Shown: in pieces, positions 11,975 through 41,172 of the stretch | How positions within the stretch are numbered: the first letter of the stretch is position 1 | Layout of the letters: the number at the start of each line of letters is the position of its first letter | NCBI GenBank assembly: GCA_011388305.1 | Contig: DSAF01000158.1 | Coordinates: forward strand, 2,212-66,211 | Length of the DNA: 64,000 nucleotides | From: Candidatus Zixiibacteriota bacterium | Lineage (GTDB): Bacteria > UBP14 > UBA6098 | Direction: 5' to 3' | The notes under the pieces: model-generated | Database searches by the model: none | What the model was told of the DNA's origin: nothing | What the model saw: only the letters and a program-made list of their open reading frames with translations | Made by a program: the position numbers and the translations under genes

Positions 11975-12904
11975 CTATCTCTTCGCGCCGATTCTCTTGG
12001 GAGAAACATTCTCCCACGCAACAACTATCGGGCTTACGACGAAAATCGAGCTGTAAGTTCCAACGATAATTCCAATAAGCAAAGCCAGCGAGAAGTCGCG
12101 GATGACCGGCCCGCCGAAAAGGAATATACAGAGCACCACCAAGAACGTTGTCAAACTCGTAATCATCGTTCGGGTGATGGTCTGGTTGAGCGAGCGGTTC
12201 ACGAGGTCGCTGAACTTCTCTCTGAAGAGAATTCTCGCGTTCTCGCGGATTCTATCCGAAATGACAATCGTGTCGTTAATCGAGTATCCCACGATGGTGA
12301 GAATTCCCGCCACCACCGGCAGGGAAATCTCCGTGCGGAGTATAGTCAGCACGCCAACCGTGATGATGACATCGTGGAACAGCGCGACGACCGCCGCCAC
12401 GCCGAAGCGGAACTGGAAGCGAATCGTCACATAGACGAGAATGCCGATTAGCGCTAAGAGAGTAGCCCACAGCGCTTTGCTCTTAAGCTCGCCGGAGACT
12501 TTGGGCCCAACGACTTCCTTGAGGCGTAGCTCTATGGCGTCATCGCCATATTTCGCTTTAAGCTCGGCAAGAACTACTTCGCCGGCCTCTTTGCCGTCGA
12601 TTTCCATTTCCGCGGGCAGTCTGAAAACGACAATGCTTCCGTCGCCTATGGACTGTATCTCCGCGCCGGTAACTCCCGCAGTTTCGACGATAGAGCGAAT
12701 CTCGCCAACATCGACGGGCGAGTCGAAACCAATCTCGATTACCTCGCCGCCCTTGAAATCGATGCCATAGAGCATCAAATCGCCTTGGGAGATGAGGTTC
12801 ATTGCGAACGCCACAATCGCCAGAACTAATAAGATGCCGCTAATGACGAACCCGGCTTTGCGCTTGCCCAAGAAGTCCCAGTTAGTATCTTTAAGGAATT
12901 CCAT
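11975..12904 (-). CDS. secF: protein translocase subunit SecF
   Basis: Six-TM SecF topology and sequence. It follows secD directly. Confidence 0.9.
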   Translation of the reverse strand: MEFLKDTNWDFLGKRKAGFVISGILLVLAIVAFAMNLISQGDLMLYGIDFKGGEVIEIGFDSPVDVGEIRSIVETAGVTGAEIQSIGDGSIVVFRLPAEMEIDGKEAGEVVLAELKAKYGDDAIELRLKEVVGPKVSGELKSKALWATLLALIGILVYVTIRFQFRFGVAAVVALFHDVIITVGVLTILRTEISLPVVAGILTIVGYSINDTIVISDRIRENARILFREKFSDLVNRSLNQTITRTMITSLTTFLVVLCIFLFGGPVIRDFSLALLIGIIVGTYSSIFVVSPIVVAWENVSPKRIGAKR

Positions 12905-12919
12905 ATGTATCTCCTATCC

Positions 12920-15088: not shown

Positions 15089-17884
15089 TCATTCACGCTT
15101 TGGCGCAAACTCTATCTCTACTCGGCGGTTTGTGATTCTTCCCTCGGGGAGTTCATTGTCTCCAAGTTCGATTTCGTAGGATTCCGTGCCTTTACCGCGC
15201 ATAAGCATATACGGCCTCGACGAGCCGTATCCCCGCGTGGCGATGGCGGAATTTCTCGTGGTGAGCCACGCATTCAGTTCGTCCTCTTCCGACATCCCAA
15301 GAATCTTCATTATGTATTCACGGAAAGTGAGAAGCTGTTCATCGGCACGGCGCCGGGATAGCGCCTCGTTAGCGGTCTCGACGCCCACGACATCCGTGTG
15401 GCCGCCAATTATGACATCGACACCGCCGTCTCTGTCGATTCTATCGACTATCTCCCGCGCGAGCTGTTCCATCCGAACCGATGCGTAATCCGGCTCGCCG
15501 TGTGCCCCCGCAAACGCGAATTGCACCAAAATAAGCCTTCCGGAAGATTTGCGACGCTCGGTATGCTCGACGCGGAGAGTCTCTGGCTCGGAGATAGCCC
15601 TTTGCCCGAAGTTATCGACCGCCTCCGCGCGGGCGATATAATAATCCGTAGGCTCGACAAGCGCACCGGCGGATGTCCGCCAATCCCATGCTACATCGCC
15701 GATGAGGCCGCCTTCGCTCGTGAACTCGCGGACGAGAGCGCCTCTGCTGTTCTCGATGACGACTCTCGATTCGGCGACATCTGCGCCGCCACGGACACTC
15801 ACACGGAAATTGCTTCTGCCGTATCCCGGCTCGACGATAGGTGCGCCATCGGGAATCTCCGTCGTCTTCGGCATATAGAGAATGCCTCCGGCCGTTATGA
15901 TTATCTTCGGCTCTTCGTCGTGCGCCTCTCGCGAGAACACCCTTCCGGCGAACTTCGAGCCGAGATATTCCGCGAACTTATTCTTAATGGCGAAGGCCGA
16001 GTCCAGTGAAGGCGCGACGGCGACAATCTCAAATAGCGGATTGGCCGCAAGGCGCGCTTTGATGCTCTCGACATCGAGGCTCTCGAGCGTGTTCGCCCGA
16101 AGGAGCCATTCGCTCGGTTGCGCGGGGCTAACGCGAATCTCCACGCGGCGGTTTTCCTCGGCGGTGAACTTCCCCCCGAGGCGCGTTCCCTCGAAGCGCT
16201 CCCTCTCGGCGCGCGGGCGTGCGCGGTCGTGCCATTTCGCGACATCGACTCGCCCATCGAGAGACGGCTCAATCGAGAGCAGTGCATCCCGAGTATTGGC
16301 GGCGCGGGCGTCGGCAAGGTCTCGTCCCTCGCGGTTCTGGGGGTCGTCGCCGGAGAAATAACCCTCGAAAGTGAGCGTCGCCTCCGGATTGTCGGCGAGC
16401 CTTCGGGCGATACTCCTCAGCGTGCCATGAAAACGCTCGGGGACTTCGTCCGAGCCAGCAGAGAAGAAGACTATCGGTATCAACGGCTCGTCCTCGGTGA
16501 CAGTAAGATATTGCGTCACATGAAGTTCGCGAACATCGACATTCATGCTCGCCGTGGGTGCGCCGAAAATATAGAACCCCGCCGATTGCTCGTTGTTCGT
16601 CTCATCCAACTCGAGAATTCTGCCGTCGAAGTTGGGGGAAAGCTCGCCGGTGTCATCGGCGCGGACGAGAAATTCCAGCGCGCCGGAGTCGCTCGCCGTC
16701 CACTCGAAATCGACAGTCGCGCTACCACCGGCGGGGACTCTCTTTGCGGTGAGTGACCGTATTCTCTCGCCGCGCAAGAACACCGCGACCGGAACGTCAT
16801 CCGCAGGGCGAGTGCCCTCGTTGCCAATCTCGATGCGTATCGTGAATTTACGCCCAGCGACGGGGTCGCCATCGAGGGCGATGTCGCTGACCACCAAGTC
16901 GGGATAGGCCGGCGGCGGAGGCTCGAAGCGATACGACGCGGAGACTCTGTGCGACGGGAAGTTGACGCCGGTAAGGGGTTGTGACGCCTCATACCTAACG
17001 CCGAGGCCGGCATTCGCGTCGAGATAGTATGTCGCGCCTATGCCGAAAGCCCATCTACCAAAGAACAGCCCCAGCTCGAGGTTGCCGTCCAGAAAATCCC
17101 GGCGAAAGGCCAAGTTTGGGTCGATGTCCGCCTCGAACTCGCCATACTCCGAGCGAAAATTTATCGACGGCGAGAAACGGATTTCCTCCCAGGGCAGTGT
17201 GAATTCGCCCGCAAACTGAAGCTCCATAGGCAATCTGTCGTCACCTGCGAGGCCGAGATTCGGGCGGTTGATGTCGTCGCCGACGATAGAAATCGACCAG
17301 CCCGGCTTTCGGTAAATCATTCCCGCGCCGAAAGATAGCGCCGTCGCGCTCGTGCCGCCTTCGAACAGCGGGTCGTTCGGGTCGCCGAGGCGGAACCGCG
17401 ACGCGGCATAAGCCCTTCGCCTAACTCGCGCTGTCGCACCGCCAAAGAGGCCGAGTCGCCTCGTCTCCTCGATGGGGCTGTGGGGCTTGCCCATTCGCCT
17501 CGCATAGTGCACCGCCAGAGACTGCGTCGAGAGCAATCCGCCGGCGAAAATCCCCGCCGATGCGCCCCAGCCGCTGTTTATATGCCTGTGCGCGTAGAGG
17601 ACATTCCCCGACGAAATTCCCTCGCCGATGCCCCAGTAATACCGCTGAAAATCGAACGCGGCCTGTGCCTGCGGGACAGTCGCGAGGCTCGCGGGATTGA
17701 GTAGCGACGGCCTGTGCGGCACGGCGAAAGAGCCTACGCCGCCGACGGGCATGCCATCGAGAAGGAGATTGTTTTCGTATGGGAAGAAATCGTAATTCAA
17801 AATATCGCTCTCGCCTGCAGATGCAAGAATTGCGGGCGCGATAAGCGTTACGAGCAAGAATGTCAGCGGAAAAAACTTTCTCAT
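15089..17884 (-). CDS. large OmpA-family outer-membrane protein (N-terminal beta-rich region, CARDB-like domain, two OmpA-like C-terminal domains)
   Basis: Signal peptide and a CARDB-like segment (DLVVSDIALDGDPVAGRKFTIRIEIGNEGT). The OmpA/MotB peptidoglycan-binding motif is VIIGGHTDVVGVETANEALSRRRAD, with a second degenerate OmpA-like motif upstream. Confidence 0.7.
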   Translation of the reverse strand: MRKFFPLTFLLVTLIAPAILASAGESDILNYDFFPYENNLLLDGMPVGGVGSFAVPHRPSLLNPASLATVPQAQAAFDFQRYYWGIGEGISSGNVLYAHRHINSGWGASAGIFAGGLLSTQSLAVHYARRMGKPHSPIEETRRLGLFGGATARVRRRAYAASRFRLGDPNDPLFEGGTSATALSFGAGMIYRKPGWSISIVGDDINRPNLGLAGDDRLPMELQFAGEFTLPWEEIRFSPSINFRSEYGEFEADIDPNLAFRRDFLDGNLELGLFFGRWAFGIGATYYLDANAGLGVRYEASQPLTGVNFPSHRVSASYRFEPPPPAYPDLVVSDIALDGDPVAGRKFTIRIEIGNEGTRPADDVPVAVFLRGERIRSLTAKRVPAGGSATVDFEWTASDSGALEFLVRADDTGELSPNFDGRILELDETNNEQSAGFYIFGAPTASMNVDVRELHVTQYLTVTEDEPLIPIVFFSAGSDEVPERFHGTLRSIARRLADNPEATLTFEGYFSGDDPQNREGRDLADARAANTRDALLSIEPSLDGRVDVAKWHDRARPRAERERFEGTRLGGKFTAEENRRVEIRVSPAQPSEWLLRANTLESLDVESIKARLAANPLFEIVAVAPSLDSAFAIKNKFAEYLGSKFAGRVFSREAHDEEPKIIITAGGILYMPKTTEIPDGAPIVEPGYGRSNFRVSVRGGADVAESRVVIENSRGALVREFTSEGGLIGDVAWDWRTSAGALVEPTDYYIARAEAVDNFGQRAISEPETLRVEHTERRKSSGRLILVQFAFAGAHGEPDYASVRMEQLAREIVDRIDRDGGVDVIIGGHTDVVGVETANEALSRRRADEQLLTFREYIMKILGMSEEDELNAWLTTRNSAIATRGYGSSRPYMLMRGKGTESYEIELGDNELPEGRITNRRVEIEFAPKRE

Positions 17885-18834
17885 GAAATCGGTGGCGCTT
17901 TGGAACCTGCGGATGCCGTCACGGGGGCTTTGATGTCATAGACACGAACGATGAAGCCCGCCCTCAAAGTGTCCTCCGTGATTGCCCTGCCGTTTGCGCC
18001 CTCGATTGAGAAGCGCGATATTTCTATCATCTTGCCGCTATTTTCGACAGAGCGGACGAAATTGGAAATCGCCGAGAAACTTCCGTTGCCCTTAACTCCG
18101 ATGAGATATCGGCTTCCTTCGGGGATTGTCTCGCTCCCGAGTGCGCTTGTTTTCACGGCAGACATGCCGCTGGCACGCGCAAGCGAATCGACCTCGCGAA
18201 GAACAGCGCCCCGCATATATGGCGGAACGGTCTTGGCATCGGCGGTGAGGCGCGCCGAGGGCAAAATTCCGAGAGCAATCGTATATTCCGTCTCGCCGCG
18301 CTTGATGTCGAATTCGAGAACCCGCTCGGTCACGACGACTTCCGAGCGGAAGATTCCTCCGGCTGTTTGGATGTCGATATTGACGGGCAGGAGGCCGCGA
18401 ACAAGCAAGCTTCCCTCCGCGCCGGTGGTAGCCGAAAAGACTTTGCCGCGCGCCGTCCTCAATACATCCAATATCGGCCAGACGCGCCCGAACCACGGGA
18501 CAGGAGCGGCAGTCACCGCCGCGACTGGGCGGGCGGTTTCCGAAGGCGGCCTCTCGGGGGCGCGCTCGGTCATCCGTGGCGGCGTTTCGGCGGGCGGTGT
18601 TGTTCGCGGGGGCGCCTCGGCGACGCGGGGCACACTCTCCCTCCGCGCAATCCGCCGCACACCAAACTCCGGCGCAATCTTGGGCAGTAAATTCCACCCG
18701 ACAATCGCCAGAACCACCACGACCAAGCCCGCCAAGGCGATGAGCTTCCAGCGAGGGCTTTTCTTCTCCTCAACCTCGGCGAGCACAGGCGCGGCCTGCG
18801 GCTCGATGAGCTTTATTGTGAGAAACTTAGTCAT
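17881..18834 (-). CDS. hypothetical membrane-anchored protein with a Pro-rich linker (possible pilus-assembly partner of PilM)
   Basis: N-terminal TM segment, a Pro/Ala/Thr/Arg-rich linker and a C-terminal globular domain. It lies immediately downstream of the PilM-like gene, overlapping it by 8 nt. Confidence 0.5.
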   Translation of the reverse strand: MTKFLTIKLIEPQAAPVLAEVEEKKSPRWKLIALAGLVVVVLAIVGWNLLPKIAPEFGVRRIARRESVPRVAEAPPRTTPPAETPPRMTERAPERPPSETARPVAAVTAAPVPWFGRVWPILDVLRTARGKVFSATTGAEGSLLVRGLLPVNIDIQTAGGIFRSEVVVTERVLEFDIKRGETEYTIALGILPSARLTADAKTVPPYMRGAVLREVDSLARASGMSAVKTSALGSETIPEGSRYLIGVKGNGSFSAISNFVRSVENSGKMIEISRFSIEGANGRAITEDTLRAGFIVRVYDIKAPVTASAGSKAPPIS

Positions 18835-19870
18835 ACGGCGATCTCATGGCCATCCCGAAAGGCTTAATCAGCCTCTGCCAAGGGACGGAGGTCTTGAGCT
18901 TCGAGACATCGACCCACGAGCTTTTGAACGGGTCGCCCTCGAAAATATGGAGATTCATGTAATTCCCGACCTGCGACACGAGATATGTCTCGGCGAACCT
19001 CCCGCAGGCCATCATCATGTCCGGGCTTTTCTTGCCGAGCGTGAATCCGTGGACGGCGAAATGTTTGTTGAAACTCAGCGTAAGCTTTTGCGCCAGCTCG
19101 AACGAGCCGTCCTCGCCGTGGAGCACCTCTCTCGGCGTGTTGAAATATCCCCCCGGAACGAAGACGCCCTTGACGGCCATCCCGAAACTCGTGAACGGCG
19201 CGGAAATATCGACTATAAGGAAATTCTCCGCCGGAAAGTCGAGGAAAATCACGGACAGAGCGTTGAACGCCGCCACAATGTCCGGCTCAACCGCCGACGG
19301 CGAAAGCCCGAGCGCAGTAAGCAATTTCGCACGCTCCTCGATAAGCCCCGCGCGCGATGCCACGGCGATGGACTTCCGCCCGAGCTTGCCCTCGCCAACT
19401 TCGACGGACTTAATGCAAAGCGAATCCGCCTCTGCGTTAACGTGCTGGCTCATCTCCCACTGCAGATTGTCGTTGTCGGGGGCGAAATAGCCCGCCGGGA
19501 CGTCGAACTCTTTCATCGACAAGAAGTGCGATGGAATGTTTATCGACGCGACCACGGCATTGAGTTTGGCGCGCTTTTTAATTTGGCGGAAAGCCTCGAC
19601 CAGCGCCTGTTGGTTGGCAATTCTCCCCTCGCGGACGACTCCGGACTCGAACTTCTCCTCGTCCGCGCCGGTGACGGAAATCTCCTTGCCCGAGACCAGC
19701 GCCTGAAGGACGGTAATCCTGTCCTCCTCGACTGCGATGCCCAGCGCGTTGCGCCTGTGCGTGAAATCAAAGCCCTCGGGAAAGGGGATTACCTCAGGCT
19801 CGGGAGCAGGCTTGACATCGCTGGCGGCGGGCGGATTATTTATTTTTTGTTTCTTTGCCGTCGAAAGCTC
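18827..19870 (-). CDS. PilM-like actin-like ATPase (type IV pilus assembly); the reading frame has no start codon
   Basis: The N-terminal region (ALGIAVEEDRITVLQALVSG...) resembles the PilM LGIDIG region, and the C-terminal half shows VDISAP...MMACG similarity. The frame is open from the TAG of the upstream prepilin-like gene at 19871-19873 through 19555 with no in-frame ATG/GTG/TTG. The track calls only the GTG at 19555. Confidence 0.6.
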   Translation of the reverse strand, partial: ELSTAKKQKINNPPAASDVKPAPEPEVIPFPEGFDFTHRRNALGIAVEEDRITVLQALVSGKEISVTGADEEKFESGVVREGRIANQQALVEAFRQIKKRAKLNAVVASINIPSHFLSMKEFDVPAGYFAPDNDNLQWEMSQHVNAEADSLCIKSVEVGEGKLGRKSIAVASRAGLIEERAKLLTALGLSPSAVEPDIVAAFNALSVIFLDFPAENFLIVDISAPFTSFGMAVKGVFVPGGYFNTPREVLHGEDGSFELAQKLTLSFNKHFAVHGFTLGKKSPDMMMACGRFAETYLVSQVGNYMNLHIFEGDPFKSSWVDVSKLKTSVPWQRLIKPFGMAMRSPYD

Positions 19871-20332
19871 CTACTCGTCTTCCCAAGTGAATCTTCCGTA
19901 GATTACCTGACCGTGGCCGTTCGGGCACGAGATTGAATAGAACAGCGAATCGCGGGCGTGGATGATATACTCCTCGCCGTCGAGCGGACACTTGAACGCA
20001 AAGCCGTCGGGCAGATATGGCTTGAGAAGATCGACATTGTCGGTGAACAACTTGACCTTGACCTTTGCGGAGTCGGCTTTTTCGGCTTTAGTTTTAGCTT
20101 CGGCCTCGGCGCTGTCCGGCTCCACGGGGGCGTGCAGAAGCGTCGTGTCGCCGAACGTGTCGAAGAAGCTGAGCATGGCGTTGTTGATCGACGTCATGCG
20201 CTCTCTGCACTCGGCCTCGGCCTCTAACAGCTTGCCCTCGCGTGCCTTAGGAATAAGTAGCGCGGCGAGAACGCCGACTATCAGAATCAGTATGATTACA
20301 TCCAACAGCGAGATTCCAGATTTACGGTTCAC
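19871..20332 (-). CDS. prepilin-type N-terminal domain (pseudopilin/pilin-like) protein
   Basis: N-terminus MNRKSGISLLDVIILILIVGVLAALLIP resembles a prepilin cleavage/methylation leader plus hydrophobic helix. Length 153 aa. Confidence 0.65.
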   Translation of the reverse strand: MNRKSGISLLDVIILILIVGVLAALLIPKAREGKLLEAEAECRERMTSINNAMLSFFDTFGDTTLLHAPVEPDSAEAEAKTKAEKADSAKVKVKLFTDNVDLLKPYLPDGFAFKCPLDGEEYIIHARDSLFYSISCPNGHGQVIYGRFTWEDE

Positions 20333-20347
20333 TTGACCTCCATTTTA

Positions 20348-20746
20348 TTATTCATTTGAAATTACTATCATTGGCTCGATTTTGCCGAGCGTCACCGGGC
20401 CGATGCCCTTAACGCGCAATAAATCCTCCGGCTTCTCATACCTGCCGTTTTGTTCCCTATCCTCGACTATCCTTCCGGCGATGACCGGCCCAATCGAGGG
20501 CAACTTGACCAGCTCCTCGACCGGCGCGCGATTGACGTCTATCGGCGCGCGAGGCTCGGCGGGGGCTTGCCTCGCAGAAATCTTCGGCACTGCCGATTCC
20601 GGCGAAATCGCTCGAACCGCCTCCGGCTCGGGGAAAGGCGCGGCGATTGACCTTGTGAAGTTACTCACCGCCCATCCCAAGCCAAGCCCTCCCAAAACAA
20701 ACACAAGCAGGGCGATTTCCCTCTTGGTGAATAAGTTCTTCATCAA
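20348..20746 (-). CDS. comEA: ComEA-family helix-hairpin-helix DNA-binding competence protein
   Basis: Signal/TM segment, then tandem HhH motifs (IDVNRAPVEELVKLPSIGPVIAGRIV...LLRVKGIGPVTLGKI). Confidence 0.8.
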   Translation of the reverse strand: MMKNLFTKREIALLVFVLGGLGLGWAVSNFTRSIAAPFPEPEAVRAISPESAVPKISARQAPAEPRAPIDVNRAPVEELVKLPSIGPVIAGRIVEDREQNGRYEKPEDLLRVKGIGPVTLGKIEPMIVISNE

Positions 20747-23729: not shown

Positions 23730-26597
23730 CTACTTCATATAAACTATCTTGCCTCCGGCCTGCTCGCCGCCCGATGTCACCCTGTAGAGATAAGTCCCCG
23801 TAGGGAGAAACTCGCCGTTTTCGAGCGTCGCGTTCCAGCGGATGAGGTTCGGGCCGGCCTTCGCCGACGGCAATGAGAAATTGCGCACGAGGCGGCCGTT
23901 TACGTCGAATATGTCTATCTCCACCGGCGCAGGCTCAGGAATGTCGAAGCCGAGTATCACCGCGCTGTTGAACGGATTCGGATACGGCGAGAGGAGCTTC
24001 ATCGAATACGGCCTCACCGCCTCCTCGGGAACATCCCAGAAATAGGGGACATCCGCCCACGCCAAAGCCCTCTCGAGGAAAGAGTGGCGTAGGCTATCGC
24101 TGAATCCCTCGATGCCGAACTCGAGAAGTATGCTCTTCCATCCCTCGGGGCTTTCATAGCGAACTCCGCAAGTCGAGTCGGGAAGCTCGCCTGCATTGTA
24201 GTAGAGGAACGGAATTCCGCCGCCGACTGCGCTACAGCTTCCCGTGTATCGCTGGTTAAGGGCGCTTCCGCCCCCAAACGCGATATTGTCCTCGAATCCG
24301 TCGCCGATGATGTCGCCGTCCAAGCCTTTGATGTTCATGGCCAGAGCCAGCGGGACGACATCCTCCACATGCCTCGTGCCGAAAACTCGCTCGAGCCAAG
24401 CGGGCGTGGCCATCTGGGGCATGTGTTGGCCGGTGAGCATGAGCAATCTTCCGGCTTCGGCGGAGAGCCAGCCCTCCATGTCGGCCTCGCTTGAACCAGG
24501 GAGAACCCTATGGCCGGACTCGTCGCCGGTCATGTAAATTATCACTCTATGGCGATCCATAATTTCGCGGGGGAGGCCGGTAGTTGGCACGAAAACGCTG
24601 TCGAACGGCACTCCGCCCCAGCGAAGCGATCCCATTACTTTATTTATATAGTCGAATGTCGTGTCTATCGATGCTACGAGAACCTCGGGATATCCCACCA
24701 TCGTTCTGAAATTGGCGATGTGGACGTAGCGGTCGGGCGTGGTTAACTCGATTTTGAAACTGACGAATCGTCCGTAGCGGTGCGTAGGATCCATCTTGAA
24801 AACTATCGGGTTGCCCGCGTTCGAGTTGGTTGCGCCGTTGGGAATAGAGCCGATAGTCGCGATGCTATCGAGTATTATCACGAGCGTGTCTTTGGTTGTC
24901 ACTTTGATTTGCGCGCCTGTCGCGGGCGCCCAAGTCGGGTCGGCGCTGTTCTCGTATGTGAAGAAAAGCTCGACTCTCTCGTCCGGCTCGGGGCGGCCGT
25001 TGCCGTTCTCGTCGATAAGCTCGACATCGACTAAAGACAGCGATGGGAATATGCCCGCGGCGAGTGCCCTGAAAGCGTTGACTCTGCCGGAACCGAGCTG
25101 TTCGCCCGCGGCGTATGATGCATTGCCGGGGACGTCGTATATATAGTCCGCCCAGTCCTCTAACCTCTGGCGAATCCAGTGGTTAGAGCTGTCCGGGAAG
25201 AAGCTCCATAGAAGTCCGGCGGCACCCGCGACAACGGGCGCGGCCATGCTCGTGCCATCGAAAGAGGCGTATCCGGGAGCGAAATTCGACCACCATGAAC
25301 CATCGCACGGTGCTGGTGGGCGCTCGTAGAAGCGCGGCACTGTCGAGCCCATATCCTCGCCCGGGGCCGAGATATCGACAGTTGTGCTGAAATTAGAAAA
25401 TCCCGCTTTGCGGTCGGATGGGCCGGTGGCGGCAACGGCAATAACCTCGGGATATGCCGACGGATAGTGAAGCTCATCGGTGTTGTCGTTGCCGGCGGCG
25501 GCTGTGATGAGCACGCCCCAGCTGTTGACTGCTGTGTCTATGAGAGAATGAACGAAATGGCTCGAATCCCTTCCGCCGTAGCTGAAGTTGAAAACCTTAC
25601 AACCCATCATAGTGCCGTAATGCAGAGCCTGTATGACGGCGGCGTTCTGGTTATATCCGCGACAGTCGCGCGAATAATAGCCCGTGCGGAGTGCCATAAT
25701 TTGCGTCCGCCATGTGATTCCCGCGATGCCGACGTTGTTGTTGGCCTCGGCGGTCATGATGCCCGTGCAATGCGTTCCGTGGCCGTTATATCTGAAGTCC
25801 ATCGGGTCGTTGTCGAAATCGAGGCCGTCCTCGCGGATTGTCGGGTCGGTGGGGTGGCGGTATGCATCGGTGAAAACGCCATCGACGAAATCATAACCGA
25901 TGAAGTCGTCGATATATCCGTTGCCGTCGAGGTCGAAGGATGAGTCTGGCGGAAGTGTCCAGTCTTGTTGGACATCCCCCGGATCGAATCCTACGCCGGG
26001 GATGAAGACATAGCCGTTGTCGTTCAAGTCTTCGCCGAGATTCTGCCACATAAGGTTGGTCAAGTCCTCGTGGAGATAGTCCACGCCGGAATCGCATGCG
26101 CCCATGATAATCGTCGGCTCGCCCTGCGTGAAGTCCCAGACGCGGTCTGCCTGAATTTTGCGGGCATACCATTGGTGCGACCAGTAGAACGGGTCGTTGG
26201 GCGTCGCGCACTGGACATAAACGAAATCAGGCTCCATGATTGTGATGCCCTTCGCGCCATGCAAAAGCTCCATGGCCGATGGGACGTCGATTTTTTCTTC
26301 ATCGAAATATACTTTGAACCATCTCTCGACCCAGCGCCACCTCCGGCGATATTCGGGGTTCGGAGCGATAGGGATGAGCCTCCGCCAACGATCGACGCCA
26401 ATTACGCGGAAAGCCGCGTCGATTTCGGGCCAGCCGGTTGTGACGAAGCCGTCCTCGTCGATTATAGGGTCGCCGAATTCCGTCTCTTCGATTTCCATAA
26501 GAAGTGTGCCGGAAACCCATCGTGTGGGGTCGTCTTGCGCGAAAGCGGCGAGAGCCAAAACAATCAGCGCAACAGCTATTAACATCAAACTTCGCAT
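23730..26597 (-). CDS. subtilisin-like serine peptidase (S8) with a T9SS C-terminal sorting domain
   Basis: Catalytic Asp/His/Ser motifs: DSGVDYLHEDL, HGTHCTGIM, GTSMAAPVVAGAAGLL. The C-terminus carries the T9SS CTD signature YPNPFNSAV...GTYLYRV. The start is set at MRSLMLIAV (signal peptide). Confidence 0.85.
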   Translation of the reverse strand: MRSLMLIAVALIVLALAAFAQDDPTRWVSGTLLMEIEETEFGDPIIDEDGFVTTGWPEIDAAFRVIGVDRWRRLIPIAPNPEYRRRWRWVERWFKVYFDEEKIDVPSAMELLHGAKGITIMEPDFVYVQCATPNDPFYWSHQWYARKIQADRVWDFTQGEPTIIMGACDSGVDYLHEDLTNLMWQNLGEDLNDNGYVFIPGVGFDPGDVQQDWTLPPDSSFDLDGNGYIDDFIGYDFVDGVFTDAYRHPTDPTIREDGLDFDNDPMDFRYNGHGTHCTGIMTAEANNNVGIAGITWRTQIMALRTGYYSRDCRGYNQNAAVIQALHYGTMMGCKVFNFSYGGRDSSHFVHSLIDTAVNSWGVLITAAAGNDNTDELHYPSAYPEVIAVAATGPSDRKAGFSNFSTTVDISAPGEDMGSTVPRFYERPPAPCDGSWWSNFAPGYASFDGTSMAAPVVAGAAGLLWSFFPDSSNHWIRQRLEDWADYIYDVPGNASYAAGEQLGSGRVNAFRALAAGIFPSLSLVDVELIDENGNGRPEPDERVELFFTYENSADPTWAPATGAQIKVTTKDTLVIILDSIATIGSIPNGATNSNAGNPIVFKMDPTHRYGRFVSFKIELTTPDRYVHIANFRTMVGYPEVLVASIDTTFDYINKVMGSLRWGGVPFDSVFVPTTGLPREIMDRHRVIIYMTGDESGHRVLPGSSEADMEGWLSAEAGRLLMLTGQHMPQMATPAWLERVFGTRHVEDVVPLALAMNIKGLDGDIIGDGFEDNIAFGGGSALNQRYTGSCSAVGGGIPFLYYNAGELPDSTCGVRYESPEGWKSILLEFGIEGFSDSLRHSFLERALAWADVPYFWDVPEEAVRPYSMKLLSPYPNPFNSAVILGFDIPEPAPVEIDIFDVNGRLVRNFSLPSAKAGPNLIRWNATLENGEFLPTGTYLYRVTSGGEQAGGKIVYMK

Positions 26598-26710
26598 AGT
26601 CACTCCATGACAATCTGAGTTTACAAATTTATAGATTATATTTGAATAGCATCGCAAAGTCAAACCAAAATGCAATTTGGAGTTTGTTTCGATATTTTTG
26701 TGATTTCCGA

Positions 26711-36400: not shown

Positions 36401-37782
36401 TCGGCGCACCAATCGATAACATATTCAGCGACTCAACATTCATCGTTATCGACAGTTCATACACCATTCTCGCGGAATTCCGCGAGGCGGTTTGGGTCGA
36501 GATAATCAAAAGCCCGCCGGGCAATGACCTCGGCTGGATTAGGATAAACACCGATACTACTTATGGCGAGGCTTTCGCCGGATATCTCGTCCGCGATTTC
36601 GAATACACAGTTCAAGTCTCGCCCTATGACGCAAACTCCGATGTGATGTTCAATTTCCTGCACTGGCGCGTGGATTCACTTGCCGCGTCCCAAAGAACAT
36701 TCACCCCCCTCTCGGACACCGTGCTCTATGCCGACTATCAGAGGTTCTGGCATATCATCATCGAGAAGCATCCGCCGGACAATCACCTCGGCAAGCTCGA
36801 GGTTGACGAAATCACTTATGCCGGCGCGGCTTCCGTCCGACAGTCTTTTTGGTGGGAGGACGGGAGCATTCACCGCTTCAATGTGACAGCGAGAGATTCT
36901 ACCCCGACTATCAGATACGATTTCAATCGCTGGAACGACGGCTCGACTTCTGTCAGCAGAATTTATGGTCCGGTCACCGGCCCGGATTCACTGGCCGCTC
37001 TTTACAATAAGACCGTCCTCTGCCGCGTCGAGAAGGTGCCGTCGCAACCATACGGCGCCATCGAGATTACGGGAACGCGTTATTACGGTGTCGGCGCGGT
37101 GGATTTCTGGCATCCATGGGGCGATGCGGTCGTTTTGGCCGTGAGCAAGTATGACGCCCACGACGATTCGGTCTATATATTCTCGCATTGGGATATCCCG
37201 GGAGAGCCTACGGATAGCGCATGGACTTGGCTCGATGTGAGAGAGCCACAGACGTTCAGAGCTATATACAACGGCTCCAAAATCAACATATATTTCGAGA
37301 TTGGACAGCATGGCGTCATGCCGCGTGACAGCATTTACTGGCTTATCCCCGATTCGCTGGATTTCGGCGAGGAGAGGGTAATGCCGATTCAGGATTCTAT
37401 TAGGATAGTGAGCCTCTCGAACGTCCCAATCGACTTTTCGCTGGGCATCGACCGAATAAAGGACTTGAACACCGGCACGCTTGATCCTCATTGGACGCCG
37501 GCATATTTCGCGGGCGTCGGCAGATTTGCGCTTCATGCACAATTCACGGATCTGTCCACGCCGCCGGTGACATGGGCGAGGATCCACGATTACGTTAAGG
37601 ATACGCCGTTCTGGGCGTCATCGATAATTTTCGGACCGGGGGGACATTACATTCAGCCCGAGGGATATCCGAACAGCTCGACAATGCTGTGGTTCAAATT
37701 CACAGCGCCGCTCGCATCCGAAAACTCGACGCACCAGCGGGCGATATGCCTCAAGCTTTCGGCAAGGATGTATTTACCATAA
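33421..37782 (+). CDS. giant secreted protein (1453 aa) with an FN3-like N-terminal region and more than ten tandem InlB-B-repeat-like (Listeria-Bacteroides repeat-like) modules
   Basis: Signal peptide, then repeated ~70-aa modules with the pattern P-x-P-x-G-x-(H/Y)-W-Y/F...C-x-G-W-x-G-x-G...F-T-M...W-x-W. Examples: YGHPHPSGVYVVPRGT...CTGWLGDGDVVP...LSFTMTDNGWLVWQW and FGDPLPTRGMHRYPRGT...CSGWSGTGSVPG...VSFTLDAFSTLTWNW. Confidence 0.75.
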   Translation: MPQPKKSLRFSHIALAILSLCSIAVAQTEIIFDVISAGGNEHFGVTSSRYKLTSTIGQSTPISAEPLTGTSHSIFPGYRKIDRDYWYPFSWFTITVHYASATSFELTWSGMDTTSHDGEGWGIWNYDLQYRTEGGAWTDWHMATVETSATFGPSAPVVVEEGESYYFRLRARDKVRNVAPWTEESGHDTTVITVNYTVEFCIHTPAPGLSTDAFNFATIEYFPVAGLPTSVNLWEGECVELSCVPGERASISRTTSDSDGEERWAVSNIDDTAFVITGSTDYDIPFWHQIRPTVHLVGTDITHTVSTLQREEFGSPHLESGLWELWTDWLDYGSTLEFSEWTTGSPARRAEADDSVRFRDITSSFTDTINYTAAGNMVTIQTNFGDSVYVDGTRFPSPHHTNWFIGSSHEIAVCRTVHISDCERWVFQQWHDGSIDTSRMVTIDSDTVFTAIFERQLRVEITNPSGIGYPIPAVGSYWFAEGDTVEGHMDVTGVVDYMLVGWLGTGSALSGGGASFWFIIHDCSSIEWRWVPASDDLCTLRVYSRYGHPHPSGVYVVPRGTLVWASVEDSTFEGGDWHHCTGWLGDGDVVPAEGDSNILSFTMTDNGWLVWQWDGNLELPLVVSSSPSIHGPPVPPVGTHWYEIDSPISAFVEENPDEDWFCTGYIASGALPTTSADSVHFILSAPTEIDWQWVYYPSGPLDTVWIFSRFGDPLPTRGMHRYPRGTVVTAVVTPFDGPNYCSGWSGTGSVPGLGTGTSVSFTLDAFSTLTWNWNDELLVPLVVINPGGYGNPTPNEGVHWYEMFTEVSASVTSPYSGWFCVGYNGFGSVPGFGYPPYCHFTIAVASGIEWLWADEAYILRVTAPAYSDPVPPAGITYHPPGRHIVATNVDTLWEHDAFRYVCKGWTGDGTVVPIAGTTSMADFTMTANATLEWLYQTQFYLELDYYGLPEGIEPDVLDFEGWFARNDTVVLVTDSVVMDGDDPYVFLRWDDSGIGAPIDNIFSDSTFIVIDSSYTILAEFREAVWVEIIKSPPGNDLGWIRINTDTTYGEAFAGYLVRDFEYTVQVSPYDANSDVMFNFLHWRVDSLAASQRTFTPLSDTVLYADYQRFWHIIIEKHPPDNHLGKLEVDEITYAGAASVRQSFWWEDGSIHRFNVTARDSTPTIRYDFNRWNDGSTSVSRIYGPVTGPDSLAALYNKTVLCRVEKVPSQPYGAIEITGTRYYGVGAVDFWHPWGDAVVLAVSKYDAHDDSVYIFSHWDIPGEPTDSAWTWLDVREPQTFRAIYNGSKINIYFEIGQHGVMPRDSIYWLIPDSLDFGEERVMPIQDSIRIVSLSNVPIDFSLGIDRIKDLNTGTLDPHWTPAYFAGVGRFALHAQFTDLSTPPVTWARIHDYVKDTPFWASSIIFGPGGHYIQPEGYPNSSTMLWFKFTAPLASENSTHQRAICLKLSARMYLP

Positions 37783-37825
37783 TCAATATGCGTTATTGGA
37801 TAATTCCCAAAGACATGGAGCAGAT

Positions 37826-40111
37826 ATGAAAAAGACAATTCTTCTTGCGCTCGTGATGATGTTAGCCGTGACGGCTCTCATGGCCGAGATTCCCCGCAAA
37901 ATTAACTATCAGGGGAAGCTGGCCGACGCAGACGGCATCGGCATCGAGGACGATGTGAATATGGTGTTCTCGCTTTTCGCCGGCCCGACGGGCGGGACGC
38001 CACTCTGGACGGAAACGCACAGCGGTGTTTCGGTGCAGAAGGGGCTTTTCGATGTCCTTTTAGGTTCGGTGACGGCGTTTCCCGAAGCGCTTCGCTTCGA
38101 CGCGCCATATTGGCTGGAGATTACCGTCGATGGCGACATAATGCGGCCGAGGGTTCAATTCTATTCTGTGCCATACGCTCTCTCGGCGGGCACCGCGACC
38201 TCGGTTTCATCGAGCGCCGCCGGAAGGGGACTCTCAGTCGATGCGGGAGACTCACTACATGTGAACGTCCGCGACGGCATCGAGATTTTCAACGACTCGC
38301 TTCAGATTAAGAACGCGGGCGTCTCCTGGCCAAAGCTCGACGAGGAGGTCAAGGACAGCATTCGATACGCTATCGGCGCGGGCGGTGTGAGCAGTCTCAA
38401 CACGCTCACCGGCGACTTGTCCATTGTAGGCGAGGGGGGCGTCTCGGTGAGCGCCGAGGGGTCGAACATTGTCGTAGATCTCACGCTCGCTCCGGGGGAT
38501 TGCCCGATGCTGATTGACCTCACAGAAGGCTCGACCGGCAATCAATATGTCCCGACGAACGTTCAGACTTTCACCCCGTCTATAGGCCAGTTTCTCATTC
38601 TCGGCGACGATATTGGTTGCACCGGCGGGCGCATGTATGGCGCGACTCTCATCGCCACATCGACATCCGGCACGATACCCGATGTAGATATCTGGTTCGA
38701 CAATGTCCTCTTGAGCGACCTCTCGGGCGGCTCGGTCTTCCCGTCGGGAACGCCGATTATCTCTGGCGCAACGCTGACAATCAACCCCGACAGCACCGTC
38801 GAGCTGACCTTCCCGCGAGGCTTTGTGTATGCCGGCAATAATCTGCTTGTCACCATGCGCAAAAACAGCACCGCCGGAATCTTCTCGGCATGGGTGGGCA
38901 AGCCTACGGCGACTGTCAACGCGCGATACACACCGGACGCTTCGAGCTTCCCGATGACGCACACGGCGAATTTCCGCCCGAATATCAAGCTCAATTTCCT
39001 CGCACCGGAGATTCCCGACATCGTAAACGATGTCAACGGCATCACCGGCTCGGTGAACATTATCGGCGGAACGGCAATCAATGTCGAAACGGCCGGCTCG
39101 GACATCACCATCAATTACACCGGCGAGTTCGAGGATGACGAAAACTGGAATTTCCGCGTCACCGACGGCGCGGACACAACGCTCATCACCAGAGGTCGCT
39201 GGGGACTCGCGCGCGGCGGCAACACTCTCCACGGCAACGCCGACTCGACTCACACGAATTGGGGCATCGCTTCGGTGACGGGAACATCCGGCTCGAATTA
39301 CAAGTATGCCACTGTAGGCGGCGGCGCAAACAATTTGGCCGGACATACTTGGACGACTGTCTCCGGAGGCTCGGAGAATCAGGCGCTCGGCCCTGGCGCG
39401 ACCGTTGGCGGAGGTTTTCTCAACACCGCGAGAGACTCGGCATCCGTCATCGGCGGCGGAAGCTGGAACGAAACCAGCGGCAAGTATTCAACTATCGCCG
39501 GCGGAAATAACAACACCGCATCAGGGCTTTGGTCAACTGTAGGCGGCGGATACAGCAACTCCGCAAGCGAAATGAACGCCACCGTCGCGGGAGGATTCCA
39601 GAATGCCGCGAGCGGGCTTTGGTCTGCAATCGTCGGAGGACACAATAACCAAGCCCAGTTCGACTATGCCGCTGTCGGCGGCGGAAGGAACAACATCGTC
39701 GCGGGCGAAAGGGCTGTCATCCCCGGCGGAAGCCTTCTGAAGGTCGGCTCACGGAGCTTCGGCTTCAGAGGAGGAATCGGCGGCAATCCCACTACACTGT
39801 CCGATGTCTCCGGCTCGCCCGAGACTTTCCATATCGTCGATGCGCATTTCCACCATAATTATAATAATTCCGCGGCTCATTTCCGCGTGGACGGAACGAC
39901 GGACTTCATGATTTACATGAATGCGACATCGAACCGCATAGGCTTCAACACGAACACGATGAGCCGAATGATAGACATCAACGGCACGGTGGGAATCAGC
40001 GACACATTAGACATGCGCCAAAACCAGACGATTAACATGGTGCTCGAAAACCGCACGGACAATCCGCCGAGTCCGGTTATCGGCCAGATTTGGATGCGCA
40101 TCGACCTTTAG
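37826..40111 (+). CDS. cell-surface / tail-fibre-like protein with N-terminal beta-sandwich repeats and a C-terminal Gly-rich 'GG' head-repeat region
   Basis: Signal peptide (MKKTILLALVMMLAVTALMA) and the N-terminal module KINYQGKLADADG...TPLWTETHSGVSVQKGLFDVLLGSV...YWLEITVDG. The C-terminal half is made of repeated ATVGGGxNNxASGxWSTVGGG units (YadA-head/Hep_Hag-like). Confidence 0.65.
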   Translation: MKKTILLALVMMLAVTALMAEIPRKINYQGKLADADGIGIEDDVNMVFSLFAGPTGGTPLWTETHSGVSVQKGLFDVLLGSVTAFPEALRFDAPYWLEITVDGDIMRPRVQFYSVPYALSAGTATSVSSSAAGRGLSVDAGDSLHVNVRDGIEIFNDSLQIKNAGVSWPKLDEEVKDSIRYAIGAGGVSSLNTLTGDLSIVGEGGVSVSAEGSNIVVDLTLAPGDCPMLIDLTEGSTGNQYVPTNVQTFTPSIGQFLILGDDIGCTGGRMYGATLIATSTSGTIPDVDIWFDNVLLSDLSGGSVFPSGTPIISGATLTINPDSTVELTFPRGFVYAGNNLLVTMRKNSTAGIFSAWVGKPTATVNARYTPDASSFPMTHTANFRPNIKLNFLAPEIPDIVNDVNGITGSVNIIGGTAINVETAGSDITINYTGEFEDDENWNFRVTDGADTTLITRGRWGLARGGNTLHGNADSTHTNWGIASVTGTSGSNYKYATVGGGANNLAGHTWTTVSGGSENQALGPGATVGGGFLNTARDSASVIGGGSWNETSGKYSTIAGGNNNTASGLWSTVGGGYSNSASEMNATVAGGFQNAASGLWSAIVGGHNNQAQFDYAAVGGGRNNIVAGERAVIPGGSLLKVGSRSFGFRGGIGGNPTTLSDVSGSPETFHIVDAHFHHNYNNSAAHFRVDGTTDFMIYMNATSNRIGFNTNTMSRMIDINGTVGISDTLDMRQNQTINMVLENRTDNPPSPVIGQIWMRIDL

Positions 40112-40224
40112 GAAATATTCGTGCCGGTTATCATTTCATCGGCAAAATTCCCGTTGAACTGGATGGGAAAATTGTTATATTGCATGAAAATTTGATACGC
40201 ACTATTATAAAAGTAAGGAGAGAG

Positions 40225-41172
40225 ATGAGGGGTATTATCTTAACACTGGCGCTTATCGCGGTTGCCGGGATGGCTATCAATACGACGCCGTATTTCCCGA
40301 TAGCGCTCGGACATGAGTGGGTCTATCAGGATTCATCGGAGGCCGGATATGACACATCGCGCGCCTTAGTCAGCGGGATGACCACGATTCACGGGCACGA
40401 GACCTTTATCGTCACGAAGAGGGGCGTCGAAGGCATCGATAGCTCGTTCTATCAGGTTCGCCCCGAGGGTTTCTACGAAATGTTCAATCTTTATGTGGAA
40501 ATGGCAGACATTTCAATCGAGAACTATCCGGTGCTGTTCATGAAGAACCCAGCCGAAATCGGCGAAAGATGGGCGGCTATGTCGATTGATACGAGCATGA
40601 TGGTTATGGGTTTTCCGGTCGATCTGACCATCGATGTCATAGCCGAGTTCGAGGGCTTCCACGATTTGATTCTCCCAATCGGCGACATGCGCGACTGCAT
40701 TAAAATAACTGCCCTCGCAGACTGGAAAATCGACGCGGGCGCACTCTTCGCAGACTCCGGTCAGGATCTCTACTCGATTTCATATTATGTCGAGAATGTC
40801 GGCCTCGTCAGCCAAACGGAGTTTGACATCATGGGCGCCATGATGGGCGGCTCGATGGACGCCACCACTTCCAAGCTCATCAGCTATGACTTCTCCTCCA
40901 TTGAGGAGCTTATCGATCGTCCGGAGGGCATGGAGCTTTCCGCCTTCCCGAACCCGTTCAACTCTGCGGTGACTATCCGCCTTCCGAGCGCCGATGTCCG
41001 GCGCGTGGAAATTTTCGACGTCACGGGCAGAGTCGTCGAGACGCTCGATGTCCCTTCCGGCGCAGGCTTCGTAGGATGGGAGCCTTCGCAGACGGCGCAA
41101 TCAGGCGTTTACTTCATCAAGGCTTTTGCCCCAGCCGCCGAGTTCTCTACACGCGCAGTCTATCTAAAATAG
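40225..41172 (+). CDS. hypothetical secreted protein with a T9SS C-terminal sorting domain
   Basis: SD AAGGAGAG before the ATG. Signal peptide present. C-terminus LSAFPNPFNSAVTIRLPS...GVYFIKA. Confidence 0.75.
   Translation: MRGIILTLALIAVAGMAINTTPYFPIALGHEWVYQDSSEAGYDTSRALVSGMTTIHGHETFIVTKRGVEGIDSSFYQVRPEGFYEMFNLYVEMADISIENYPVLFMKNPAEIGERWAAMSIDTSMMVMGFPVDLTIDVIAEFEGFHDLILPIGDMRDCIKITALADWKIDAGALFADSGQDLYSISYYVENVGLVSQTEFDIMGAMMGGSMDATTSKLISYDFSSIEELIDRPEGMELSAFPNPFNSAVTIRLPSADVRRVEIFDVTGRVVETLDVPSGAGFVGWEPSQTAQSGVYFIKAFAPAAEFSTRAVYLK

Follow-up and report, generated by a model that had tools for sequence, protein, structure and literature searches.

The window analysed here, a 64,000-nt stretch of contig DSAF01000158.1 from a Candidatus Zixiibacteriota bacterium (assembly GCA_011388305.1), carries on its minus strand a gene for a homologue of the pilus-assembly protein PilM that has no ATG, GTG or TTG at the point where its protein ought to begin. 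The gene follows a pseudopilin-like gene and shares its phase, the two being separated by a single in-frame TAG. Comparison with related loci indicates that the pilM-like gene is intact and that it probably starts at a non-canonical ACG codon (Table 1), which lies 6 nt beyond a Shine-Dalgarno (SD)-like motif, TAGGAG, that itself overlaps the stop codon of the pseudopilin-like gene. Two observations carry this reading: no canonical start fits the conserved N-terminus of the protein, and a near-cognate codon stands at a fixed distance from the SD-like motif.

A pilM-like frame without a usable canonical start

The pilM-like frame is open from position 19870 to the TAA at 18829-18827, a run of 347 codons on the minus strand, in the same phase as the pseudopilin-like open reading frame (ORF) upstream. 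The original prediction, made from this DNA alone, had described a PilM-like frame that lacks a start codon and continues the pilin-like gene across an in-frame TAG, and the ORFs confirm this description. It had also held that the first in-frame ATG, GTG or TTG, a GTG at 19555, comes too late to be the true start. Here the homology agrees: the Pfam PilM_2 match (E = 1.2e-7; 31.5 bits, with a cut-off of 27) extends over residues 44-231 after the TAG and profile positions 1-196, so that the first canonical start comes about 60 codons after the homology begins. The alignment to TIGR01175 (pilM) begins at profile position 4, with a score of 38.7 bits that is under the cut-off of 133.

How unusual is such a frame? 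In the other long window frames that are rich in G and C at third codon positions (GC3-rich), the canonical start lies 0-43 codons from the upstream stop; the exception, at 37628-40111, has a 56-codon gap and overlaps the end of the preceding ORF. Ten of these frames, with the larger gaps among them, have no Pfam domain ahead of their first canonical start. No comparable gap occurs among the listed frames, which marks the pilM-like gene as a genuine outlier, not a product of chance.

On the opposite strand, a 661-codon open frame (17951-19936, plus) runs antisense to the pilM-like gene and the pilN-like gene that follows it. In all likelihood it is no gene but a shadow ORF cast by the GC3-rich coding strand.

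The junction in related lineages

Homology searches yielded a small family, to which distant relatives were added by an exhaustive profile (hidden Markov model, HMM) search and a third homologue search. Twelve lineages were compared: a close clade of five that includes the window, the single lineage L011, and a sister clade of six. The close clade comprises the window with L007, L001, L002/L008, L003-5/9/10 and L006, with protein identities of 63-69%. One relative locus lies in a metagenome-assembled genome (MAG) labelled 'bacterium UBP14_UBA6098'. Scans of genomes and metagenomes for more loci returned only duplicates of known lineages, and a profile search of 90% clusters with the close family found the same five proteins again.

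All five close lineages share one junction, in which W-E-[ED]-[EK] is followed by TAG GRG NNN NNN ACG GSN AAR AAR. The ACG is unchanged in every one of them, despite near-saturation of synonymous sites (pS, the proportion of synonymous differences, is 0.54-0.95), and it opens a conserved peptide, T-[GA]-K-K-x-K, whose next codon varies synonymously (GGA, GGT or GGG). The three codons between the stop and the ACG, on the other hand, read GLS, GDK, GNK, ELS and EF* in the five lineages and are not conserved. The last of these is L001, where the junction is TAG GAG TTC TAA ACG GGA AAG AAG and a second in-frame stop directly precedes the ACG.

Sister-clade pilin-like genes keep the conserved ...TWEE ending, and in most of them TAA takes the place of TAG. 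The junction reads TAA AGGAGG NTTAAG GTC in L013/14, L019 and L020/21, TAA GGGAGG TTTGAG ATC in L017, TAG GAG ACACCT ATC in L018, and TAAGGAG AAACCT ATC in L015/16, where a 10-nt gap puts the pilin stop out of frame by +1. Each time the start codon is followed by [VI]ELG[LF]DKL[LF]KG, encoded with many synonymous differences. In the more distant L011 (36% identity) the junction is ...GGGAGGATTAA CCTA TTG GCA AAG GGT; the TTG aligns with the ACG, the called product begins M-A-K-G-S-S-K-N, and the gap of 4 nt leaves the pilin stop out of frame.

Thus the codon 6 nt beyond the SD-like motif is ACG in five lineages, ATC in three, GTC in three and TTG in one. ATG occupies this position in none of the 12, and the normal ATG-initiated pilM that the original prediction had thought orthologues might reveal was not found. 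The SD-like site takes the form TAGGAG, TAGGGG, TAAGGAG, TAA-AGGAGG or TAA-GGGAGG, and overlaps or abuts the pilin stop. The spacer that follows is 6 nt long in 11 of the 12 lineages, with neither its nucleotide sequence nor its translation conserved, and the distance from the pilin stop to the proposed start is 9 nt in the window and 4-12 nt in the relatives. Pairing to a canonical anti-SD is predicted at -6.5 kcal/mol for the window TAGGAG, and at -5.6 to -12.1 kcal/mol across the 12 lineages for the 15 nt that precede the proposed start. Elsewhere in the window, the gene at 11975-12913 starts with TAGGAG, 6 nt and an ATG, and many genes have a GGAGG- or AGGAG-type motif 5-9 nt ahead of their ATG.

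No such constancy attaches to the first canonical start. Its offset from the proposed start is +0, +9, +21, +44, +47, +52, +52, +59, +60, +72, +74 or +102 codons, and its position is not conserved. Four of the five close lineages have no ATG, GTG or TTG for 44-102 codons after the ACG, and in 10 of the 12 lineages the conserved leader and PilM core precede the first such codon.

The same comparison bears on other explanations: a recent pseudogenising mutation or a sequencing error, both of which the original prediction had entertained, or an error of assembly at the start codon. Any of these would account for the lack of a canonical start and for the shortened 242-aa product of the automatic call. 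However, L007, assembled independently (SRR7787372), has exactly the junction sequence of the window, and the same layout recurs in all 12 lineages, which come from different samples. The frame is intact in each of them and synteny is conserved. The ratio of nonsynonymous to synonymous differences (pN/pS) is 0.22-0.47 between PEGFD and GTG 19555 and 0.22-0.36 over the rest of the gene, which indicates purifying selection on both sides of the GTG, and the modelled full-length PilM fold is intact. There is next to no chance that the gene is dead or the sequence wrong.

The in-frame stop is an ordinary stop

Is the TAG perhaps read through? Programmed read-through and UAG recoding (pyrrolysine, leaky UAG) likewise involve an in-frame UAG between two frames, with no canonical start downstream, and the original prediction had proposed that a pilin-PilM fusion might be made in this way. 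The fusion could be the only route to PilM or a functional minor product. The TAG is indeed the stop of the pilin-like gene in all close lineages and is in frame with pilM in all five, and a stop is in frame in five of the six sister-clade lineages. However, the fusion would require two read-through events in L001, the pilin stop is out of frame in L011 and L015 (gaps of 4 and 10 nt), and most sister-clade lineages have TAA at this position. Unlike in programmed read-through, neither the frame relation nor the identity of the stop is conserved, no conserved coding sequence follows directly after the UAG, and no recoding element was found. A fusion would also be topologically awkward, since PilM is a cytoplasmic protein, whereas a pilin domain is located beyond the cytoplasmic membrane. 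The in-frame relation arises because the stop codon overlaps the SD motif and is followed by a 6-nt spacer (3+3+6 or 3+6+6 nt), and the TAG in frame is thus a by-product of this geometry, not a recoding signal. All this makes a pilin-PilM fusion very improbable.

The suggestion that TAG might be reassigned in this genome is likewise not borne out by the window. Several long window genes end in TAG, for example the S8 peptidase gene at 23730-26675, which stops four residues past the sorting domain of the type IX secretion system (T9SS), and the sister lineages use TAA at the junction. The only tRNA in the window is a tRNA-Lys(CTT), and there is no suppressor tRNA among the window sequences. TAG is an ordinary stop in the window.

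No Rfam family matched the junction, and a search for conserved RNA structure near the stop, the SD-like motif and the ACG was negative; the one hairpin predicted falls within the pilin-coding sequence and shows no covariation. Scanning for promoters and terminators gave weak consensus matches only. One of these, a sigma-70-like match at 19835-19864 on the minus strand (TCGACG, 18 nt, AATAAT; 9/12), would place the transcription start downstream of the ACG. It is probably due to chance, its -10 element consisting of the window-specific AAT AAT codons, which are not conserved.

A translated leader and a complete PilM fold

Between the ACG and the PilM core lies a Lys/Pro/Ala-rich leader of about 30-35 residues. 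The distance from the proposed start to the core motif, [KR]R[NKT]xxG, ranges from 19 to 44 codons among the lineages and varies in whole codons only. Frame 0 of the leader is free of stops across the lineages, whereas the two alternative frames contain 15 and 27. Together with the pN/pS values, this pattern shows, on comparative grounds, that the stretch downstream of the proposed start is translated.

The 5' end of the gene is also poor in ATG. An in-frame ATG occurs once in the first 60 codons of the 12 lineages (1/720) and 88 times in the 3406 codons elsewhere (Fisher p 1e-6), although this comparison draws on non-independent lineages and on a low-complexity leader. Over the same 60 codons, the share of GTG among Val codons and of TTG among Leu codons is about halved, which is not significant. 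The depletion of ATG may mean that stronger internal starts are selected against where the true start is weak, or it may simply follow from the low complexity of the leader.

Structure prediction is consistent with a complete PilM protein. An AlphaFold2 model from the 12-sequence alignment reached a pLDDT (predicted local distance difference test) of 84.8 and a pTM (predicted template modelling score) of 0.82, with residues 1-23 below a pLDDT of 50; it replaced a failed model from a five-sequence alignment (pLDDT 32.6). In a Foldseek search of the PDB, the top 10 matches are all PilM (template modelling, or TM, scores of 0.65-0.72 over about 350 columns), including 5eou_B (TM 0.72), 2ych_A (TM 0.70) and 3jc8 (TM 0.66), with FtsA next, and profile searches find the same PilM entries. 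The modelled product has a complete actin-like (FtsA/PilM) fold.

The GTG at 19555 was considered as the true start and rejected. Strands 37-44, 48-56 and 61-70 and the helix 84-98 of the PilM fold all lie upstream of residue 103, and a product starting at this GTG would therefore lack an integral part of the fold.

The full-length actin-like fold is shared with the PilM proteins of type IVa pili from P. aeruginosa (5EOU/5EOX), T. thermophilus (2YCH) and M. xanthus (3JC8), with TM scores of 0.66-0.72 and E from 1e-21 to 5e-17. The window protein differs from these in its sequence, which is only about 17% identical, and in its Lys-rich leader; its score is above the gathering score for Pfam PilM_2 but below the cut-off for TIGR01175.

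Which codon is used?

The original prediction had listed an unusual initiation codon among its explanations, naming ATA, ATC and CTG as candidates. The kind of explanation is supported by the comparison, but these particular codons are not favoured, and the evidence points to the ACG instead. A near-cognate start further downstream could be the ATA at codon 10 after the TAG (19841-19843) or the ATC at codon 28 (19787-19789), the latter just ahead of PEGFD. Both lie in the pilM frame, all five close lineages have ATA or ATC, an Ile codon, four residues ahead of PEGFD, and in E. coli AUA and AUC are better starts than ACG (PMC3643588). However, SD pairing ahead of these codons is poor and inconsistent (-1.7 and -2.2 kcal/mol in the window, 0.8 to -5.8 kcal/mol in the others), other near-cognate codons of the leader likewise pair more weakly or irregularly, and the ATA at codon 10 is found in the window only. 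Every lineage keeps its frame open through the leader as far as the Ile codon, and insertions and deletions there come in whole codons only; a start further downstream would also leave the T-G-K-K-x-K block unexplained. Initiation at either Ile codon is accordingly improbable.

The ACG start itself faces several difficulties. The lineages are related, so that counts across them do not represent independent events. In L001, a GTG nine codons past the ACG is a possible alternative start. The SD energies assume a canonical anti-SD and not the 16S rRNA of the host itself. Standard lists of bacterial start codons give AUG, GUG and UUG, and occasionally CUG, AUU and AUC, but omit ACG, and we know of no documented natural ACG start in bacteria. 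Three sister lineages have GTC, which has two mismatches to AUG and would be a poorer start still. Given this codon, the mechanism may not be ordinary codon-anticodon selection.

The GTC codons go together with the strongest SD motifs (AGGAGG, -11.7 kcal/mol). In L019, the sequence between the upstream stop and VELG[LF]DKL contains no single-mismatch alternative except AAG and AGG. The GTC starts are not explained by ordinary near-cognate initiation.

Such considerations lead to a further possibility, in which post-termination ribosomes are held by the SD-like motif and restart at whatever codon lies 6 nt on, with little need for pairing to the initiator tRNA. The drift of this codon between ACG, ATC, GTC and TTG, never ATG, is what such codon-tolerant re-initiation would predict, as are the pairing of the doubly mismatched GTC with the strongest SD motifs and the constant distance from stop to start (9-12 nt, or 4 nt in L011). 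In E. coli with inactivated ribosome recycling factor (RRF), ribosomes retained on the mRNA do start at non-canonical codons past the stop (PMC2268962). However, in wild-type E. coli re-initiation requires the initiator tRNA and the initiation factors IF2 and IF3 (PMC2268962). In addition, the codon is a single mismatch from AUG in 9 of the 12 lineages, which suggests that pairing to the initiator anticodon still matters, and the ACG is invariant in five lineages although Thr has four codons. Re-initiation that is indifferent to the codon is thus unlikely, and initiation specifically at the ACG is preferred for the window and its close relatives.

The gene cluster

The pilM-like gene is part of a minus-strand cluster (15089-20746) that combines inner-membrane components of the type IV pilus or type II secretion system (T2SS) kind with a T9SS-type PorP/SprF barrel and a DNA-binding ComEA-like protein. 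To our knowledge, this combination of ComEA-like, pseudopilin-like, PilM-like, PilN-like and PorP/SprF proteins has not been described in other systems. The order is the same in all loci: LptF/G (on the opposite strand), the ComEA-like gene, the pilin-like gene, the pilM-like gene, a gene of about 320 codons and a gene of about 930 codons encoding the PorP/SprF-CARDB-OmpA protein, followed in most loci by SecDF. The Pfam domains PorP_SprF, CARDB and OmpA were assigned to the last cluster gene in every locus.

The pilin-like ORF begins with MNRKSGISLLDVIILILIVGVLAALLIP, which has the appearance of a prepilin or pseudopilin. Its N-terminal similarity to GspG (E = 8e-4) and to PilA is weak and under the cut-off, and a Pfam search with this protein gave no match. 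The protein encoded downstream of pilM is bitopic, with an N-terminus that reads MTKFLTIKLIEP (MAKLLHTNLLPEE in the sister clade) and is followed by a hydrophobic stretch. This N-terminus resembles the PilM-binding INLLP motif of PilN, from which the designation PilN-like derives. The protein has no Pfam or NCBIfam match, and there are no matches to PilN, PilO, PilP or PilQ at the cluster. Compared with the operons of type IVa PilM, the cluster likewise has a membrane-protein gene next to pilM, with a PilN-like motif at the N-terminus of its product, but PilO, PilP and PilQ are not recognisable and the PorP/SprF-CARDB-OmpA protein is present instead.

Table 1. Features of the cluster and of the pilin-pilM junction (positions in the window)
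Feature	Position	Strand	Remarks
931-aa outer-membrane protein, PorP/SprF + CARDB + OmpA-like	15089..17884	minus	TIGR03519 T9SS_PorP_fam E 1.2e-15; OmpA-like matches
PilN-like membrane protein, 317 aa	17881..18834	minus	ATG start 18832-18834; 8-nt overlap with end of pilM-like gene
pilM-like coding sequence as proposed, 344 aa	18827..19861	minus	TAA stop 18827-18829
First canonical start, GTG	19553..19555	minus	Codon 106 after the TAG, residue 103 if translation begins at the ACG; start of automatic-call product P0001, 242 aa
Lys/Pro/Ala-rich N-terminal leader	19772..19861	minus	Predicted disordered
Proposed start codon ACG of pilM-like gene	19859..19861	minus	9 nt past the TAG
Spacer CTTTCG, 6 nt	19862..19867	minus	Between SD-like motif and proposed start
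SD-like TAGGAG	19868..19873	minus	Overlaps pilin-like stop codon
Pseudopilin-like gene, 153 aa	19871..20332	minus	GTG start 20330-20332 behind GGAGG; TAG stop 19871-19873; C-terminus ...GRFTWEDE*
ComEA-like helix-hairpin-helix protein	20348..20746	minus	Pfam HHH_3 E 2.9e-17; TIGR01259 comEA E 9e-14, under cut-off

Start codons appear to be a fixed property of each gene in this cluster. The pilin-like gene starts with GTG behind GGAGG in 11 of 11 lineages and never with ATG, and the pilN-like gene starts with ATG in all lineages. The overlap between the pilM-like and pilN-like genes is 8 nt in the window and takes the form TGATG in the sister clade. From this pattern, start-codon identity seems to be fixed gene by gene along the operon.

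Two further window proteins (23730-26675 and 40036-41172) carry C-terminal T9SS sorting domains (Por_Secre_tail), one of them being the S8 peptidase, which also has an FlgD_ig domain. The sorting domains together with the PorP/SprF protein suggest that the organism has a T9SS.

A possible mechanism

How might an ACG be used as a start? In the mechanism proposed here, a single mRNA would carry the comEA-like, pilin-like, pilM-like, pilN-like and PorP/OmpA-like genes, and the stop codon of the pilin-like gene would form part of the SD-like UAGGAG. The ACG six nt on would then be placed in the ribosomal P site, where the initiator tRNA would pair with it with one mismatch, at the second codon position. 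Translation from there would yield a PilM homologue of 344 residues whose Lys-rich N-terminal leader is disordered.

Because stop and start are only 9 nt apart, initiation is probably largely coupled to termination of the pilin-like gene. The geometry for coupling is present: the SD-like motif overlaps or abuts the upstream stop, the gap between stop and start is short, and the ACG lies in an unstructured, purine-rich context. The overlap between the pilM-like and pilN-like genes fits coupling as well. Most initiation events would then be due to ribosomes fresh from termination at the pilin-like stop, and the weak codon would limit the output of PilM to a small, constant proportion of that of pilin. 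A stronger form of the proposal is that throughout this uncultured lineage the pilM-like gene is expressed solely by SD-anchored termination-reinitiation, 9-12 nt past the pilin stop, at weak or doubly mismatched codons (ACG, AUC, GUC), with AUG selected against and a very low ratio of PilM to pilin hard-wired into the operon. This is a speculative extension that is doubtful at present.

What is known from E. coli is compatible with a weak start of this kind. The initiator tRNA reads AUU, AUC, AUA, CUG and ACG weakly (PMC3643588; bioRxiv 10.1101/063800), and initiation at ACG yields an N-terminal Met (bioRxiv 10.1101/063800). With a chloramphenicol acetyltransferase (CAT) reporter, ACG gives about 0.7-1% of the activity of AUG, and AUC about 5-8% (PMC3643588). 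Re-initiation declines with intercistronic distance and is aided by an SD (PMC2268962). Changing AUG to ACG serves as a knock-down mutation. No report of a natural bacterial ACG start was found in the literature searched, the coverage of which was incomplete and does not prove absence.

The closest parallels are infC (which encodes IF3) and pcnB, both of which have conserved AUU start codons. As here, a weak near-cognate codon behind an SD has been kept across lineages, with low translation as the result. The present case differs in its codon, ACG (ATC or GTC in the sister clade), and in concerning a homologue of a pilus-assembly protein rather than a translation factor, and it shows no sign of the IF3-based autoregulation of infC. 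Very short gaps between stop and start, with an SD at the end of the upstream ORF, are familiar from genes V and VII of phage M13 and from overlapping gene pairs. In known coupled pairs, however, the restart codon is AUG, GUG or UUG, whereas it is non-canonical in 11 of the 12 lineages here. The same triplet, ACG, is found at the starts of adeno-associated virus (AAV) VP2, the paramyxovirus C' protein and plastid genes (where ACG is edited to AUG). These depend on eukaryotic scanning or C-to-U editing, neither of which is known for bacteria of this kind.

Implications

Automatic gene callers accept ATG, GTG and TTG only. For this reason the pilM-like gene is called from the first internal ATG, GTG or TTG (P0001, P0003-P0005, P0010, P0155, P0157-P0159), and in most lineages the public protein, in some cases in NCBI or ENA records, lacks 44-102 N-terminal residues. 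Among the missing residues are the three strands and the helix with which the PilM fold begins, and as a consequence of the shortened calls several public pilM-like proteins have no Pfam annotation.

On the stronger form of the proposal, this would be the first conserved natural ACG start site (and, with the sister clade, GUC start site) described in bacteria, and a natural example of relaxed start-codon choice in re-initiation. A deeply conserved ACG start, with ATC or GTC in the sister lineages and never ATG, would mean natural selection for an extremely weak start. The junction would then offer a system for testing the joint effect of SD strength, stop-to-start distance and proofreading by IF3 on coupled initiation. 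The gene cluster, as an undescribed combination of pilus-like and T9SS-like components, may itself merit study.

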